A DNA stretch of 64,000 nt from an uncultured Burkholderiales bacterium (GCA_964470865.1 CAYYFR010000005.1:10858-74857), one strand, 5' to 3'. Positions 1 to 6,442 are shown, numbered from the stretch's first letter. Notes: generated from the sequence alone by a model not told the origin. A program made the numbers and translations.

Positions 1-1028
1 CTGACCCCGCAGATGGAACGGCGCATCGGTAAATCCTATTACCGCGAATTGCGGCGCGATCCGGTCTATCTGGAGGATGCGGAAGTCAAGGCGTATTGCG
101 AGGAGCGGGCAGGCGGCTGATCGCCGCCGGGCCCGATCCCGGCATGGAGGTCGCGTTTTTCGTCATGCAGGATCCGACCATCAATGCCTTCGCGATGCTG
201 GGCGGCTACATCAGCATCAATAGCGGACTGCTGCTGGCGGCAAGAGCGAATCCGAAGCCGCCAGCGTCATCGGGCATGAATTTGGCCAATTGACCCAGCG
301 CCACATCGCCCGCAGCGTCAGCGCCGGCCAGCGAACCTCGATGGTGTCGATGATCGCGATGGCATTGGCGCTGCTGGCAGCGCGCTCCAACGGGCAGGTG
401 GCCTCGGGCGTTGTGGCCGGTGTGCAGGCCTCTCAGGTGCAATCGCAGTTGGCGTTTTCGCGCGCTTTCGAACGCGAAGCCGACCGTGTCGGCTTCGAGA
501 CGCTGCGCAAGGCCGGTTTCGACGTCAGCGCCTTGCCTGCGTTCTTCGAGCGCCTGCAGCGCGCCGGACGCGTCTACGAATCCGATGCGCCGGTTTACGT
601 GCGCAGCCACCCGCTGACGACCGAGCGTATCTCCGACGTGCAGAACCGCGTCCCGGGGGGCGCGCTATCGCCAATATGTCGATAGCCTTGGGTTTCGTCT
701 GGCGCGTGTGAAATTGCGGGCCACTGCGGACGCCGGTGTGGATGGCGTGCGCAATGCCCTCAAATTTTTCGCCACCCAAATCGCCGAGCGCAACTACGCC
801 AACGAGGGTGCTGCCCGCTATGGACAGGCCCAGACGCAATTGATGGCGCGCGATTTCAAGGCCGCAGCCCAGTCGCTGGCGCTAGTCCCGAAGGATGCGA
901 CGCATCCAATGATTGACGCCCTGGGCGCGCGTATCAAGACGGCCGCCGGCGACGGCCCTGGCGCCATCGCGGCGTATCGCACCGCGCTGGTGAAATTTCC
1001 GCGCACCCGCTATCTTGAACTTAGGTAA
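1..1028 (+). pseudogene. BepA/YfgC-like M48 metalloprotease with TPR tail, disrupted (at least 3 frameshifts, degenerate zinc motif, 3' truncation); 5' end outside window
   Basis: Family-like sequence is spread over four frame segments: frame 1 (1-117, ...RELRRDPVYLEDAEVKAY, stop 118-120); frame 3 (96-293, EVAFFVMQDPTINAFAMLGGYISINSGLLLAA); frame 2 (open 224-685, SESEAASVIGHEFGQLTQRHIARS...FEREADRVGFETLRKAGFD...RSHPLTTERISDVQNR); frame 3 again (open 618-1028, RYRQYVDSLGFRLARVKLRA...). The last shift sits at a G6 run (655-660). HExxH reads HEFGQ. Confidence 0.75.
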
Positions 1029-1184: not shown

Positions 1185-2933
1185 TCAAACCTCCAGTTGT
1201 GATGTTCGCGAGTGCTTACCATCGACCCAATTACGCCATAGGGCCCTATACGCTTTTTCGAGATTAGAGGCCATTTCGCCCCCGTTCATCGCCTGACCGA
1301 CCTGCATTTGCGGGCGCAAGTAGGAGCGCAGAAACGTCCGCCTTGCCGCGTCATCGGCAAGCGCCACCGCTGCCTCCACGTACTGCTCCGGTGAGCGCGT
1401 ACAAAGGTCCGCCAGGCCTACCCCTCCGAGCAAACCTTCCGCGACGCGCCCGATTTCATGGCTGGTCGCCATGCTGATCACCGGCACCGCCATCCACAGC
1501 GTATGCAGCGTGGTGGTGCCGCCGTTGTAGGGGAATGGGTCGAGCGCAATGTCGGCGCTCCCGACCATGCCCAGAAACCTGGCCAACGGCTGGAACCCTT
1601 CAACCACGATGCGCTGCGGGTCGATTGCGCGCGCGACGAACTTCGCACGCACCGCCGCGCGGCCGCCTGGCGTGTCGCCACCGGCAGCTATCACCAGCAG
1701 TTCGGCCGACGGCACACGCGTGAGGATGCGGGCCCAGACGTCGATGACCGCATCGGACACCTTGGTCCAGTTGTTGAACGAGGCAAAGCGCACATGGCCG
1801 CGTGCCAGGGACGGCGGCGGGCCGGGTTCGGGTGCGTCCGGGGCTGCGGACCATGCTGCGGCATGCGGCAAGCGGTAAATCGACTCGGAATAGCGCGCCT
1901 CGCAGCCCGGCGGGCACAGGCAGGCGTCGCTCAAGCGATAGTCGATGGAGGTAAGTCCGGTCGTATTCATGTAGCCAAACCAGGTTGCAGCAACCGGCGC
2001 GGGCTTCATCGCGAACAGCGGCAGGCGATTGCCCCCGGTGTGGCCGGACAAATCAACCAGGATATCGATGCGGTCTTGGCGAATCCGCCGTGCCAGCGCG
2101 GCATCGTCCAGGCCGGCGATCTTTACCCAGTGCTCGGACAACGACATCAGCCGCTTGGTAAAGGCGTCGCCCGGGCCGGCGTGGTTGTCATAGCAGGTTA
2201 CCTCGAAGCGGCTGCGATCGTGCCGCTCAAGGACCGGCGCCAGAAAGAACGCCACCGAATGGGTGCGCAAATCCGCCGACACATAACCGATCTTCAGACG
2301 GCGATCGGGATCCGCATCATTGCCGTGCGGCGTCCGTGCCGCCGCCAGCCGCGCCTCCAGCGCCCGCCCCCAGGCGAAATGCTGCTCCGCGATCTGCGTC
2401 GGCGACAGGCGGGGGTCATGGTTCAGGATGAACAGGCGATTGCTGTGAATCGCGTCCGCCAGCGGATCCATCGCGATGGCCCGGTCCATGTGGATCAAAG
2501 CCTCTTCGATATGGCCTTGCTGAAACAGGATGCCACCCACGCAAGAGATCAATTCCGGCTGCGGCTGCAACTCGACCGCGCGGCGAAAGGCCTGCAGTGC
2601 GTCATCCAGGTTGCCCAGCGCGCGGGCCGCCACGGCGCGCGTGATCCAGGCCTGCGCATGACCGGGCGCCTGCGCCAGCACCTCGTCGCACAAGCTTATC
2701 GCGTCCGCGTGATCACCGGCCAGGTGGTGCATCGTAGCGCGCCCGTGCAGTGCCGGAATCGAGGCCGGATCCAGTGCCAGCGCCCGCTCGAAGCAGATCG
2801 CCGCGTCCGCCAGCTCACCGGTATTGTTATGCGCGATGCCTTGTTCAACCCAGCGCGTGGCGGCAAGCGCAGGATCGACCGCTCGGTCTGGCGCCAGGCG
2901 CTTGCCGATTGCCCCCAGCAGCCGCCCTAGCAT
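1185..2933 (-). CDS. TPR-repeat protein with C-terminal GT41 (O-GlcNAc transferase/SPINDLY-like) glycosyltransferase domain
   Basis: ORF 1185-2963. TPR-like repeats (AICFERALALDP, AFRRAVELQP, HMDRAIAMDP) are followed by GT41-type motifs LKIGYVSADLRTHSVAFF, IDILVDLSGHTGGNRL, KPAPVAATWFGYMNTTGL, RFASFNNWTKVS..VWARIL. Start placed at ATG 2933 (MLGRLL), overlapping the upstream TAG (2927-2929) by 7 nt; an upstream alternative start at 2963 is possible. Confidence 0.85.
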   Translation of the reverse strand: MLGRLLGAIGKRLAPDRAVDPALAATRWVEQGIAHNNTGELADAAICFERALALDPASIPALHGRATMHHLAGDHADAISLCDEVLAQAPGHAQAWITRAVAARALGNLDDALQAFRRAVELQPQPELISCVGGILFQQGHIEEALIHMDRAIAMDPLADAIHSNRLFILNHDPRLSPTQIAEQHFAWGRALEARLAAARTPHGNDADPDRRLKIGYVSADLRTHSVAFFLAPVLERHDRSRFEVTCYDNHAGPGDAFTKRLMSLSEHWVKIAGLDDAALARRIRQDRIDILVDLSGHTGGNRLPLFAMKPAPVAATWFGYMNTTGLTSIDYRLSDACLCPPGCEARYSESIYRLPHAAAWSAAPDAPEPGPPPSLARGHVRFASFNNWTKVSDAVIDVWARILTRVPSAELLVIAAGGDTPGGRAAVRAKFVARAIDPQRIVVEGFQPLARFLGMVGSADIALDPFPYNGGTTTLHTLWMAVPVISMATSHEIGRVAEGLLGGVGLADLCTRSPEQYVEAAVALADDAARRTFLRSYLRPQMQVGQAMNGGEMASNLEKAYRALWRNWVDGKHSRTSQLEV

Positions 2934-4912
2934 GGCGCCGCCGCAATCTGCCGCGGCACACAAAATGCTGCGGGGGCCGCGCCAGACTGCGCCATCGTGT
3001 GCATGGTGCTGTAGGCGGCTTCGAGACGAAGGGTGTACGACTGCGTGTCGAACAAGGGGCCGTCAGACCGTGCCCGCACACAGCGGCGCCTCAAGTCGTC
3101 CATGCGCGACCGGTCATGCGCCAGGGCGATCGCCAGGTCACGATAGCTTTCAAGATTTGCACATGCCAGTTCGTCCAGCCCCGCGGCACACAGGATGCTC
3201 GCGGCCACTCGTGACGAAAAGCTGTCACCGCTTGCAGTGATCAGAGGCAAGCCGGCCCAGATTGCATCGCTTGCGGTGGTGTGCGCATTGACATAGTGCG
3301 TATCGAGAAAAAGGTCGGCCAGCGACATGCGGGCCAGATGTTGGTCCCGCGGCAGCGGGCCGGCGAAAATCAGCCGTGACGAATCAATGCCGCGCAGGCC
3401 GGCGGCATTGACCAGATTGGCGCGCGCATCATCGCGGTCGGCAAGTATCCAAAGCACCGAGCCGGGCACGGCATGCAAAATATCCATCCAGACGCCAAAG
3501 ATCCGCGGCTCGATCTTGTAGCAGGAATTGAACGAGCAGAATACGAAGCTTTGCGGCGGCAGCCCGAGTTCTGCGCGTGTTGGCACTTGCGGAGACGTGC
3601 GCTGGGCGTTGTCGGTTGGCTGATAGCAATACGGCAAATAAACCACATGTTCGGAGTACCAGGGCTCATCGCCCGGCCGCACCAGAACCGGATCGGCGAT
3701 CAGGTAATCGATGAACCCCGCGGCAACCGTGCCCGGATAGCCGAGAAAGCTGACCTGTACCGGCGCCGGCCGCAACGCGGCGATTTCCGGCCGGCCGGCA
3801 CCGGCGTAGCCGTTCAGGTCGATCAGAATATCGATGTCGTCGTCGATGATGCGTTGCGCCGTTGTCAACGGCGAGTGCAAAGCCATATCGGCAAACCGAT
3901 CAAACAGGGCCATCACCCGGTCGCGAAAGTCGCTGCCGTCACCCGCGCCCAGCGAATAGGCGAACAGCTCGAAACGGCTACGGTCGTGGCTGGCGAGCAC
4001 GCCTTGCAGCAGGTGCATGCTCGGATGCGTATGGAAATCGGCAGACAGGTAGCCGAGCCTGATCCGCGCCGGCCCGGCCTGCCGCCGATGACGATTCAGT
4101 TGCTGCGCCATAGGCGCCACCCGCGCCACGAAAGTCGCACCGCTGCGGCGCGCCACGGCGAAGCGCGCGCGACGCGAGGCAGGCACACAGTCGGCCACTG
4201 CCGGCGCCAGCAGCGGGGTGGCAGCAGGCAGCATGCCGGCCGCGTCCTGTTCGAGATACGCAACCAGCCTTGCGGTCGGAAAGCCCCAGTCGCAACGGCG
4301 CGCATACGCCATGTACCCAAGGATCGGGATCGTCGCCGAATCCGGATCAAGTGCAGTCGCCTGCCGGCAGCAGGCCGGGCCGTCGATTTGCGGAAAAAAC
4401 GCCTCAAGGCCGGCCAGCGCCAGCCACAAGCCCGCGGCGTCGACCCGCTCCAGCATGTCGCCATGGGCCAGTGCGTTGAGCAGAACCTGATGCGCACGCA
4501 GCGGGTCACCAAGGGCTAGATGAACATCCTTCAAATTCAGTGTCGGCGCGACCAGGGTCGGTGCGTCAAGCACCGCGCTCTCCAGTTCGTCGCGTGCTTG
4601 CTCCAGCTTCCCGCAGCGCCCCAGCGCCAGCCCGAGATTGGCACGAATGATCGGGTCGTGCGGATCGCTTGCCACTGCGCGGGCGATGATTGCAGCGGCT
4701 GCGGCGGGCTGGTGGTCGCTCAATTCGATCAGCCCGGCCATGTGCAGGGCCTGGGCATCCAACGGGTCTGCGCGCAGGCAGCCCGCGAGTACGGCTCGTG
4801 CAGCCGCGGTGTCGCCCGCACGAACCAGTTCACCCGCGCGCGCAACATCGAATGAAGAATGCGGCTTGGCCACTTTCGAACGCGTGAGCTGTCGATACAA
4901 GTTCTTGAGCAC
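2927..4912 (-). CDS. TPR-repeat O-GlcNAc transferase homologue (GT41)
   Basis: 661-aa ORF. The C-terminal half is collinear with the eukaryotic OGT catalytic lobes as I recall them: IRLGYLSADFHTHPSMHLL, IDILIDLNGYAGAGRP, PAPVQVSFLGYPGT, FVFCSFNSCYKIEPRIFGVWMDILHAVPGSVLWIL, DTHYVNAHTTASDAIWAGLPLIT, SRVAASIL. N-terminal TPRs. GTG start at 4912 has no clear SD, so the start is uncertain. Confidence 0.9.
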   Translation of the reverse strand: MLKNLYRQLTRSKVAKPHSSFDVARAGELVRAGDTAAARAVLAGCLRADPLDAQALHMAGLIELSDHQPAAAAAIIARAVASDPHDPIIRANLGLALGRCGKLEQARDELESAVLDAPTLVAPTLNLKDVHLALGDPLRAHQVLLNALAHGDMLERVDAAGLWLALAGLEAFFPQIDGPACCRQATALDPDSATIPILGYMAYARRCDWGFPTARLVAYLEQDAAGMLPAATPLLAPAVADCVPASRRARFAVARRSGATFVARVAPMAQQLNRHRRQAGPARIRLGYLSADFHTHPSMHLLQGVLASHDRSRFELFAYSLGAGDGSDFRDRVMALFDRFADMALHSPLTTAQRIIDDDIDILIDLNGYAGAGRPEIAALRPAPVQVSFLGYPGTVAAGFIDYLIADPVLVRPGDEPWYSEHVVYLPYCYQPTDNAQRTSPQVPTRAELGLPPQSFVFCSFNSCYKIEPRIFGVWMDILHAVPGSVLWILADRDDARANLVNAAGLRGIDSSRLIFAGPLPRDQHLARMSLADLFLDTHYVNAHTTASDAIWAGLPLITASGDSFSSRVAASILCAAGLDELACANLESYRDLAIALAHDRSRMDDLRRRCVRARSDGPLFDTQSYTLRLEAAYSTMHTMAQSGAAPAAFCVPRQIAAAPC

Positions 4913-5095
4913 GGGTGGATACTGGCGATCAGGAAAACGCTGAAAGAATCCAAGAGCGGCGGACTACCGCAAGAACGGACTCATCCATTCAATTCGACGC
5001 AACTGCCAGCGCGTGCCCGTCGCGTCTACTGAGGATTCAACTGCGGCGTTTTGGGAAGAGGCCTTGCCGCAGCACCGCCCAATGTGACAGCACCA

Positions 5096-5121
5096 ACAAA
5101 AAACCCCTCTCGCGAGGGGTC
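5096..5121 (-). terminator. Rho-independent terminator downstream of the distal pilin gene
   Basis: 7-bp GC-rich stem (5103-5109 / 5114-5120) with a 4-nt loop, followed on the minus strand by TTTTTGTTG. Lies 22 nt after the pilin stop codon. Confidence 0.7.
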
Positions 5122-5142
5122 TTTTGCGCGATCCGGCTACGC

Positions 5143-5562
5143 TTAACGGCAGGTAGCAGGCATGTACTTCGAAGGTGTTCCGAGGCACGCCCAGGTGATG
5201 GTGCCGGTACCGGTGTTGTAGGTCGGGGTGATGGTAATCGATACGTTCTGGCCAATTGAGGTAGCGAGAGTGTTGCCTTGAATGGTAATTATGCCCGGTA
5301 AGGTCACGCCGCCGCCCGATATCTTGCCAACGGTATTGAAGGTGAGGCCGGAACCCGCGGTGGTGACGTCGTTGTCGGTCTGGAACTTCTCCGAGATGGC
5401 CGTGCGATACGAGCTACCCGCCAGGATCAGTTCCGAAACGCGCGCACGCACCGTGTAATCCTGATACGCAGGCAACGCGACGGCCGCCAAGATACCGATA
5501 ATCGCAACCACGATCATCAGTTCGATCAGGGTAAAACCCTTCTGAAGCAAAATCTTATTCAT
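5143..5562 (-). CDS. pilA: Type IVa major pilin (PilA-like), copy 1
   Basis: 139 aa. Short leader MNKILLQKG followed by [27 protein letters not shown] (class III signal/N-methylation motif). C-terminal disulfide loop [18 protein letters not shown] 6 nt upstream of the ATG. Confidence 0.92.
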
Positions 5563-5615
5563 ATTGAAGCTCTCCTGTCGGAAAATGGTAATGCCGTGTT
5601 TGGCAAGTAACTATA

Positions 5616-5631
5616 TACAAGATGCGTGCCA
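5616..5631 (-). promoter_or_regulatory. Sigma54-type -24/-12 promoter candidate for pilin copy 1
   Basis: Minus strand reads TGGCACGCATCTTGTA. GG-N10 spacing is correct and the TGGCAC -24 element is perfect, but -12 is TTGT instead of TTGC. Lies 54-69 nt upstream of the ATG. The same element recurs upstream of copy 2. Confidence 0.5.
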
Positions 5632-5696
5632 AAACCTAAGCCATTGAAAATAAACGACTTCATTTATTCCATTGTCATAGAGATCAGCAGTTTTGC

Positions 5697-5725
5697 GTCA
5701 CCCGAGTGACAAAATTTGTCACTTC
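5697..5725. promoter_or_regulatory. Inverted-repeat cluster (candidate enhancer-binding-protein/PilR-type UAS) upstream of pilin copy 1
   Basis: GTCAC-ccga-GTGAC-aaaattt-GTCAC. It includes the perfect 15-bp palindrome TGACAAAATTTGTCA (5707-5721). Located 66-94 bp upstream of the -24 element. TGTC motifs occur nearby. Confidence 0.35.
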
Positions 5726-5905
5726 CCTGTCAGCCAGCCTGCCTGCATCCGCACACCGTCAATGACGACGCCAAACGCGTGCCTGCCACTTGACATGCGA
5801 CACAGTAGCGCAGCCGCGCTCGGGTGAAGCGTCCAATAGCGACCCGTTGCGCGCCCATTTCAATGCTTGTGGGCAGCGCTTCGCATCGGGTCGGGCGCAC
5901 CAATG

Positions 5906-5928
5906 AAAAAGCCCCGCTCGCGCGGGGC
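5906..5928 (-). terminator. Rho-independent terminator between the two pilin genes
   Basis: Stem GCCCCGC/GCGGGGC (5911-5917 / 5922-5928) with a 4-nt loop; a T5 tract on the minus strand (5906-5910). Confidence 0.7.
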
Positions 5929-5953
5929 CTCCTGGTTCACAGGGCGCTTGCGA

Positions 5954-6373
5954 TCAGCGGCAGGTAGCCGGCATGTACTTCGAAGGCGTGCCCAGGCAGG
6001 CCCAGGTGATGGTGCCGGTGCCGGTGTTGTAGGTCGGGGTGATGGTAATCGATACGGCCTGACCAATAGAGGTGGCGGCGGTGCTGCCTTGAATGGTGAC
6101 GATGCCACCTGCAGTCACGCCGCCCCCGGAAATCTTGCCTACGGTGTTGAATGTCAGCCCCGAACCTGCGATGGTGACGTCGTTATCGGCCTGGAACTTT
6201 TCGGAAATCGCCGTCCGATACGAGCTGCCCGCCAGGATCAACTCCGACACCTTGGCGCGAATGGTGTAATCCTGATACGCGGGCAAGGCGACGGCGGCCA
6301 GGATACCAATGATCGCAACAACGATCATCAGTTCGATCAGGGTAAAACCCTTTTGTAGCTGAACCTTGTACAT
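5954..6373 (-). CDS. pilA: Type IVa major pilin (PilA-like), copy 2
   Basis: ORF 5954-6448, trimmed to ATG 6373 ([36 protein letters not shown]) with AGGAGG 8 nt upstream. 139 aa, paralogous to copy 1 along its whole length. Confidence 0.92.
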
Positions 6374-6426: not shown

Positions 6427-6442
6427 TACAAGATGTGTGCCA
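6427..6442 (-). promoter_or_regulatory. Sigma54-type -24/-12 promoter candidate for pilin copy 2
   Basis: Minus strand reads TGGCACACATCTTGTA, the same architecture and the same TTGT -12 element as copy 1. Lies 54-69 nt upstream of ATG 6373. Confidence 0.5.

Follow-up and report, generated by a model that had tools for sequence, protein, structure and literature searches.

Within a 64,000 nt window of the genome of an uncultured Burkholderiales bacterium (GCA_964470865.1 CAYYFR010000005.1:10858-74857), two genes for soluble glycosyltransferases of family GT41, each with tetratricopeptide repeats (TPRs), follow a tandem pair of type IVa major pilin genes. We give about an even chance to the reading that this block forms one end, the one nearest the pilins, of an island that specifically serves cytoplasmic O-glycosylation of the type IVa major pilin. 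In textbook proteobacterial pilin glycosylation the glycans are lipid-linked and the transfer is periplasmic. What is new here is the pairing of an OGT-type with a SPINDLY-type enzyme, translationally coupled beside proteobacterial pilins and with a sugar-modification cluster attached; the initial annotation of this DNA missed both the subfamily split of the pair and the larger island with its viosamine-like cluster. 'The window' means the whole stretch, which starts at C5:10858, and positions are counted from its first letter; codes beginning with G denote compared genomes, those with L fetched loci and those with C contigs. The minus-strand order is pilA2, terminator, pilA1, terminator, GT41-A, GT41-B, and the features are as follows.

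6428..6442, minus strand: sigma-54-like promoter element of pilA2 (TGGCACACATCTTGT), an exact TGGCAC-N5-TTGY match
5954..6373, minus strand: pilA2, type IVa major pilin paralogue, 139 aa (PF00114, E 2.9e-10; PF07963, E 9.3e-10)
5906..5929, minus strand: intrinsic terminator 3' of pilA2, a GC-rich 10-bp stem with a U-run
5617..5631, minus strand: sigma-54-like promoter element of pilA1 (TGGCACGCATCTTGT), an exact match to the same pattern
5143..5562, minus strand: pilA1, type IVa major pilin, 139 aa (PF00114, E 3.7e-11; PF07963, E 3.3e-09)
5098..5126, minus strand: intrinsic terminator in the pilA1/GT41-A interval, a 14-bp stem with a U-run
2927..4912, minus strand: GT41-A, soluble TPR protein with an OGT-type (SEC-type) GT41 domain, 661 aa (PF13844, E 4e-94)
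1185..2933, minus strand: GT41-B, soluble TPR protein with a SPINDLY-type GT41 domain, 582 aa (PF13844, E 9e-51, plus TPR)

The gene order given in the initial annotation was recovered in full: all four genes lie at their positions with the expected Pfam matches, and both terminators fold. The gap from pilA1 to GT41-A is 230 bp. GT41-A begins with GTG and stops at 2927-2929, and the 582 aa form of GT41-B begins with ATG at 2933 (a longer, TTG-started frame runs from 2963), which bears out the reported overlap of 7 nt between the two genes. The same 7-nt overlap occurs in three sister genomes (G010, G005 and G008), and the translational coupling of GT41-A and GT41-B is therefore conserved.

GT41-A belongs to the OGT/SEC branch of GT41. 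PF13844 matches in two stretches, alongside TPR_19/16/17, and the E-values rank human OGT (1.5e-90) ahead of XcOGT (5e-77) and SPINDLY (4e-47). The AF2 model (pLDDT 85.7) shows a TPR superhelix and two Rossmann-like lobes; according to Foldseek it has a template-modelling (TM) score of 0.80 to Drosophila and human OGT, compared with 0.57-0.64 to SPINDLY. The stretches that had been quoted as collinear with the OGT catalytic lobes align with human OGT exactly as quoted. Residues K466, H296, H525, H544, T545, T546 and D549 correspond to human OGT K842, H558, H901, H920, T921, T922 and D925, and the equivalent of human OGT Y841 is also kept; the positions matching the catalytic lysine and the UDP-GlcNAc-binding set show little or no variation in 12 relatives. 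Two substitutions relative to human OGT are K898 to Arg and Q839 to Ser. The TPR plus GT-B layout and the catalytic and UDP-GlcNAc residues are thus common to GT41-A, human and Drosophila OGT and Xanthomonas XcOGT. Unlike human OGT, GT41-A has no metazoan intervening domain, has only ∼5-6 TPR-like repeats and does not keep the residue equivalent to H498, and its genomic context indicates an exported filament protein rather than nucleocytoplasmic signalling. GT41-A has no signal peptide and no transmembrane segment (top 19-residue hydropathy 1.50).

GT41-B belongs to the SPINDLY branch. Its best E-values are to SPINDLY (7y4i, 1e-90) and Thermobaculum TtOGT (5djs, 1.6e-89), with human OGT at 1e-60, and the AF2 model (pLDDT 83.1) has TM scores of 0.80-0.82 to SPINDLY and of ∼0.6 to OGT. 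The two enzymes are thus members of different GT41 subfamilies and not duplicates of one another, and the earlier description of both as OGT-type holds for GT41-A only. With residue roles taken from PMC9715652, GT41-B retains SPINDLY H495, S496, N661, the essential K665, Y744 and T748; in GT41-B numbering, K391 and H225 are invariant in nine relatives and S226, Y469 and T473/T474 are present. The fold and key residues are therefore those of Arabidopsis SPINDLY (a GT41 protein O-fucosyltransferase; 7Y4I, 8DTF-8DTI) and of TtOGT (5DJS), but two SPINDLY features are missing. The GDP-binding, purine-stacking H728, reported to be dispensable (PMC9715652), falls in a 4-residue deletion, and the substrate-binding asparagine ladder of the TPRs (N334, N367 and N368) is replaced by G, I and T. 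Without these features, GDP-fucose as the donor is not implied. GT41-B likewise has no signal peptide and no transmembrane segment (top 19-residue hydropathy 1.25).

The two pilins are 90.6% identical and have the hallmarks of type IVa pilins: the motif KGFTLIELM, a short leader (MNKILLQKG) ending in Gly, Phe at +1, Glu at +5, a hydrophobic α1 helix and a C-terminal Cys pair (WAC...ATCR) of the disulfide-loop type. Ser and Thr make up 23% of the mature protein, in line with the earlier remark that the pilins are Ser/Thr-rich. Each gene is preceded by a TGGCAC-N5-TTGT sigma-54-like element at an equal distance from the ATG; the TGGCAC-N5-TTGY motif by itself is not enriched in the window (eight matches versus 12 expected). 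The terminator behind pilA2 has a fold energy of -33.1 kcal/mol (z -3.34) and that behind pilA1 has one of -27.4 kcal/mol (z -3.89), and for neither was any of 200 shuffles as good. Two loci of sister genomes, L096 (G009:C108) and L097 (G010:C105), contain extra pilin paralogues of 59-65% identity without the prepilin leader and Glu+5 motif, which may be silent or decayed copies.

The genes behind GT41-B extend the block into an island. In G010, G008, G005 and G009 the same strand continues with a FabH-like β-ketoacyl-acyl carrier protein synthase III (KAS III), two short-chain dehydrogenases/reductases (SDRs), one PglD-like hexapeptide acyltransferase, one Rieske oxygenase and additional acyltransferases; in G007 and G004 the gene directly next to GT41-B encodes a DegT aminotransferase, and G015 has pilin, DegT, GT41-B-like and FabH genes in that order. 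In the genome studied here the same cluster lies outside the window, on the other strand (C5:1-9730), with a FabH-like KAS III, two SDRs, three hexapeptide acyltransferases (one PglD-like) and two Rieske oxygenases, extended relative to the sister clusters by an O-methyltransferase and an FkbM methyltransferase. Its first gene, at the contig start, is an incomplete second copy of the GT41-B kind, with only 66% identity to GT41-B. In Pseudomonas syringae, vioA/B/S/R/M make N-(3-hydroxybutyryl)-2-O-methyl-viosamine for flagellin (PMC3927599), and the gene set of the cluster resembles this one: the viosamine-type donor cluster similarly comprises an aminotransferase, a hexapeptide acyltransferase, a KAS III, an SDR and a methyltransferase. 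The island proteins examined are all soluble, and the island contains no flippase, polyprenyl-phosphate transferase or O-oligosaccharyltransferase, which fits direct transfer from nucleotide sugars. No polytopic enzyme of Wzy_C or GT-C type, the kind that a periplasmic route would call for, adjoins pilA in the island; searches with PF15864 (PglL_A) and PF11846 (Wzy_C_2) had no match in the control genomes either.

At the edge of the island, C5:9742-10815 (minus strand) encodes a complete MoaC domain fused in frame to the C-terminal third of a DegT aminotransferase. At the corresponding position in G007 and G004, moaC and a DegT-homologous segment are ∼0.7 kb apart, and the fusion looks like a rearrangement scar.

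Across the genus the arrangement is stable. All genus genomes whose contigs allow the order to be read (G010, G008, G005, G006, G007, G004 and G002) have pilin(s), GT41-A and GT41-B in this order, G005 being a single-contig genome. G009 might have been taken as a genus member with a pilin but without GT41-A. Its 87%-identical GT41-B stops 52 bp short of a contig end and the pilin opens another contig; the GT41-A position is an assembly gap between contig ends, so this genome gives no evidence of gene absence, and the case was rejected. Within the genus, identities are 49-64% for GT41-A and 54-87% for GT41-B, compared with 79-91% for the neighbouring NirA-like gene and 78-94% for the pilA1 orthologues. 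A third GT41 gene stands between the pilin and GT41-A in G007 and G004, and upstream of the pilin G005 and G010 encode a TPR protein that weakly matches GT9 (E ∼1e-5).

Beyond the genus the picture is mixed. In genus g4 (G015, G018 and G013) pilins adjoin SPINDLY-type GT41 genes, and in three genomes of other families (G035, G055 and G109) arrays of GT41 genes lie 0.8-4.3 kb away from PilA. Seen from the pilin side in related genera, PilA is flanked by SPINDLY-type GT41 genes in G015, G018, G013 and G035. In other relatives the same slot next to pilA holds a TPR-methyltransferase, a weakly GT9-like TPR protein, DegT, or a GT2 and GT-C set (PMT/TMEM260-like in G034). The slot is bordered by moaC and/or M48 in several families, giving the frame moaC, (M48), slot, pilA, and the region behaves as an old, variable accessory slot.

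Of 151 genomes sampled across the order, 47 have SPINDLY-type relatives, often as arrays. Eight of 65 further SPINDLY-type loci, fetched order-wide, hold some prepilin gene; three of the 65 have a PilA-type gene (G055 and G109 at the distances given above, G118 at 8.1 kb), and in one (G035) the GT41 gene lies within a cluster of other pilins. The baseline is ∼1% per 20 kb, as the genome studied here has seven prepilin open reading frames in four loci, and prepilin genes are thus ∼10 times as frequent near SPINDLY-type loci. That the pilin link is more than chance is partly supported.

A tree of 110 GT41 sequences places GT41-B in a clade with 100% support whose eight sequences, from two genera, are all pilin-linked. 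Six GT41-A orthologues form a clade of their own, neighbouring unlinked paralogues. Context labels are clustered on the tree (12 changes versus 24 in shuffles), and a single pilin-specific SPINDLY-type clade was rejected, the context having changed at least eight times. The GT41 family has the look of a glycosyltransferase toolkit associated with genes for filament subunits, and it is the local context, not phylogeny, that hints at the target.

In the mechanism that we propose, the N-terminal TPR domains of GT41-A and GT41-B would bind newly made prepilin, and sugars would be moved singly from nucleotide sugars to Ser/Thr residues of its globular part, in the cytoplasm and before insertion into the inner membrane. 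GT41-A would probably use UDP-N-acetylhexosamine, and GT41-B, as the SPINDLY-type partner, may add another sugar, from the viosamine-like cluster. By analogy with the viosamine island, this cluster would provide an N-acylated, methylated amino-deoxy sugar. Insertion, processing by PilD and assembly would come after glycosylation. We infer pilin as the substrate, together with the order of action, the donors and the export of the modified prepilin. The fully specified version, in which the pilin carries a composite cytoplasmic glycan from the OGT-type and SPINDLY-type pair plus a viosamine-like acylated, methylated amino sugar and is then inserted, processed and assembled, is a tentative proposal and rather doubtful as a whole.

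There is a close precedent in cyanobacteria. Ogt of Synechococcus elongatus (Synpcc7942_0051) is a TPR-GT41 protein encoded beside pilA, and both the glycosylation of PilA and normal piliation depend on its catalytic K445 (Suban 2022, PMC9306852). The protein lacks a secretion signal, and in 77 of 201 cyanobacterial genomes an ogt gene adjoins a pilin gene; Nostoc punctiforme OgtA is a second case (PMC9306852). The description of this route as undescribed in the initial annotation accordingly does not stand. Ogt and OgtA are likewise soluble TPR-GT41 proteins without a secretion signal encoded beside a major pilin gene, and both the adjacency and the missing signal are found here; Nostoc proteins (38-39% identity) are among the nearest GT41-A homologues from other genera. 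The present case differs from the cyanobacterial one in its proteobacterial (Burkholderiales) host with sigma-54-driven pilins, in having two translationally coupled enzymes of different GT41 subfamilies instead of a single Ogt, in the attached viosamine-like cluster and in being known from sequence alone. Our literature searches gave no report of GT41-type pilin glycosylation outside cyanobacteria.

Two further groups of systems are comparable in part. Caulobacter FlmG captures flagellins through its TPR domain and glycosylates them in the cytoplasm (PMC7591256), and both FlmG and the P. syringae fgt/viosamine island combine TPR and GT-B with direct cytoplasmic transfer before export, as proposed here; their substrates, however, leave by the flagellar type III channel and not by Sec and membrane insertion, whereas the linked filament here is a pilin. 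The genes for TfpO/PilO, TfpW and PglL occupy, as here, a variable slot directly behind pilA, and the pilin-specific accessory slot of Pseudomonas aeruginosa with tfpO/tfpW is parallel to the pilA slot described above. These enzymes are polytopic membrane proteins acting in the periplasm on lipid-linked donors, in contrast to the soluble proteins of the island.

Several observations weigh against a dedicated pilin-glycosylation island. One is a mechanistic puzzle, the cytoplasmic glycosylation of a Sec-inserted pilin. Type IV prepilins are inserted co-translationally via the signal recognition particle and Sec, with the globular domain in the periplasm, which leaves little time for a cytoplasmic enzyme. 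A strong terminator stands behind each pilin, including between pilA1 and GT41-A, and a promoter search upstream of GT41-A gave no sigma-54 or sigma-70 match; co-transcription of the pilin and GT41-A is therefore not to be assumed. Of 79 loci with OGT-type relatives from outside the genus (35-52% identity; Nostoc, Alphaproteobacteria, Bryobacterales and others), only one has a prepilin gene within 10 kb, which is about the baseline, and the best GT41-A matches outside the genus (∼40% identity) have no pilin within ∼8 kb; on the count of one in 79, a general pilin linkage of OGT-type enzymes was rejected. Most of the 65 SPINDLY-type loci are near neither flagellin nor PilA genes. Genus-level synteny may be inheritance only, and with the moaC/(M48)/slot/pilA frame common to several families, the cases are not fully independent. 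Five Wzy_C-family proteins and two flagellin genes are encoded elsewhere in this genome, the former on other contigs, and the genome itself is a fragmented 6.8-Mb metagenome-assembled genome (MAG; 501 contigs, contamination 6.9%). A flagellin gene lies 0.4-6.5 kb away in eight of the 65 SPINDLY-type loci, compared with the three that have PilA. The claim that the GT41 pair is dedicated to pilins is favoured by the order in all evaluable genus genomes and by the TPR transferases flanking PilA elsewhere, and disfavoured by the locus counts for both subfamilies.

These flagellin neighbours, commoner than PilA neighbours, raise an alternative: that the true target is flagellin or another exported filament protein and that the place beside pilA is historical. 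FlmG, a TPR glycosyltransferase, acts on short Caulobacter flagellins, the genome-wide PF13844 search was also positive in the Caulobacter control genome, the two flagellins of the present organism (275-277 aa) have no transferase gene close by and the adjoining sugar cluster is similar to a flagellin glycosylation island. We nevertheless regard this alternative as unlikely. The flagellin genes have no GT41 gene close to them either here or in the single-contig G005, where ∼2 Mb separate them from the island; GT41-B sits within the all-pilin-linked clade; G035 (98% complete) has pilin-linked GT41 genes and no flagellin gene; and unlinked GT41 paralogues on C20, C130 and C52 are available for flagellin.

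A regulatory role similar to that of OGT and SPINDLY, with single sugars put on cytoplasmic proteins (for example the pilus motor, PilR/PilS or metabolic proteins) and pilin not a substrate, would sidestep the topological difficulty that an exported substrate poses. It agrees with the UDP-GlcNAc-binding residues of human OGT kept in GT41-A, with the cytoplasmic location of both enzymes, with the finding that bacterial GT41 genes are mostly not beside filament genes and with the pleiotropic phenotypes of the Synechococcus ogt mutant (PMC9306852). We consider it improbable: the dedicated modified-sugar cluster behind GT41-B in the sister genomes is typical of surface glycans and not of signalling, GT41-A and GT41-B diverge much faster than the NirA-like gene or the pilin, as is usual in surface-glycan loci, and arrays of TPR-fused transferases recur around PilA genes.

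We give equally little credence to an adjacency without functional meaning, in which the moaC/M48-pilA interval is a variable slot that gathers glycosylation cargo for another substrate; its varying content between genomes, its scars (the diverged second GT41-B copy, the DegT fragment fused to moaC and the M48 gene split over frames), the terminators that isolate the pilins and the SPINDLY-type GT41 plus FabH/SDR/acyltransferase/Rieske cassette of G153, G051 and G105 (L223, L226 and L230; another family of the order), which has no pilin or flagellin gene within ∼10 kb, speak for it, but the cargo is never random, consisting only of TPR-fused transferases and sugar-modification genes with no transposase or phage genes, and prepilin genes exceed the baseline near SPINDLY-type loci.

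The surroundings of the block may be described briefly. A NirA/sulfite-reductase-like gene and cobA lie upstream of it, divergently oriented, and M48 peptidase remnants lie downstream of GT41-B. The latter (window 96-1028, plus strand) comprise an M48 (BepA-like) peptidase and a TPR part split over the frames 96-293, 290-685 and 708-1028, and are either a pseudogene or the result of frameshift errors in the MAG. In many MAGs the locus is found on very short contigs or at contig ends (G001:C144, G002:C278, G006:C375, G009:C109/C188, G015:C198/C295/C305 and G018:C315), which is consistent with variability between strains, or with repeats that break the assembly, at the pilin/GT41 island.

Two other genes were seen at such islands. 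A conserved protein of ∼100-125 aa without a Pfam match (M..F...DVDAFAK.LA...RLG...KAKLGN.F.W.LKE.GY) is encoded beside pilin-linked TPR-transferase arrays in other genomes (L092:6400-6705, L093:10957-11304 and L100:5474-5851, also L098, L202, L207 and L210); the copy in the present genome (C26:16039-16362) is 1.7 kb from a gene for a T2SSE-family ATPase. In G035, a gene for a regulator of GAF plus HD-GYP type, according to Pfam, stands at the edge of the pilin/GT41 island (L092:13702-15327), and proteins with similar N-termini are encoded beside the pilins of G034 and G012 (L104:8631-10307 and L101:5278-6843).

The interest of the locus is limited in that the principle has already been published, on genetic grounds, for cyanobacteria. 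If the proposal of a dedicated pilin-glycosylation island is correct, proteobacteria would have a pilin glycosylation route free of lipid carriers, and OGT and SPINDLY homologues would have a natural case of a common substrate. Both branches would gain bacterial, genetically tractable substrates, and glycoengineering would gain a small soluble enzyme set. It would raise the testable question of the timing of prepilin modification and of whether a glycosylated globular domain crosses the membrane. Many environmental Betaproteobacteria would then apply to a Sec-inserted protein a carrier-free cytoplasmic route like that of flagellin.

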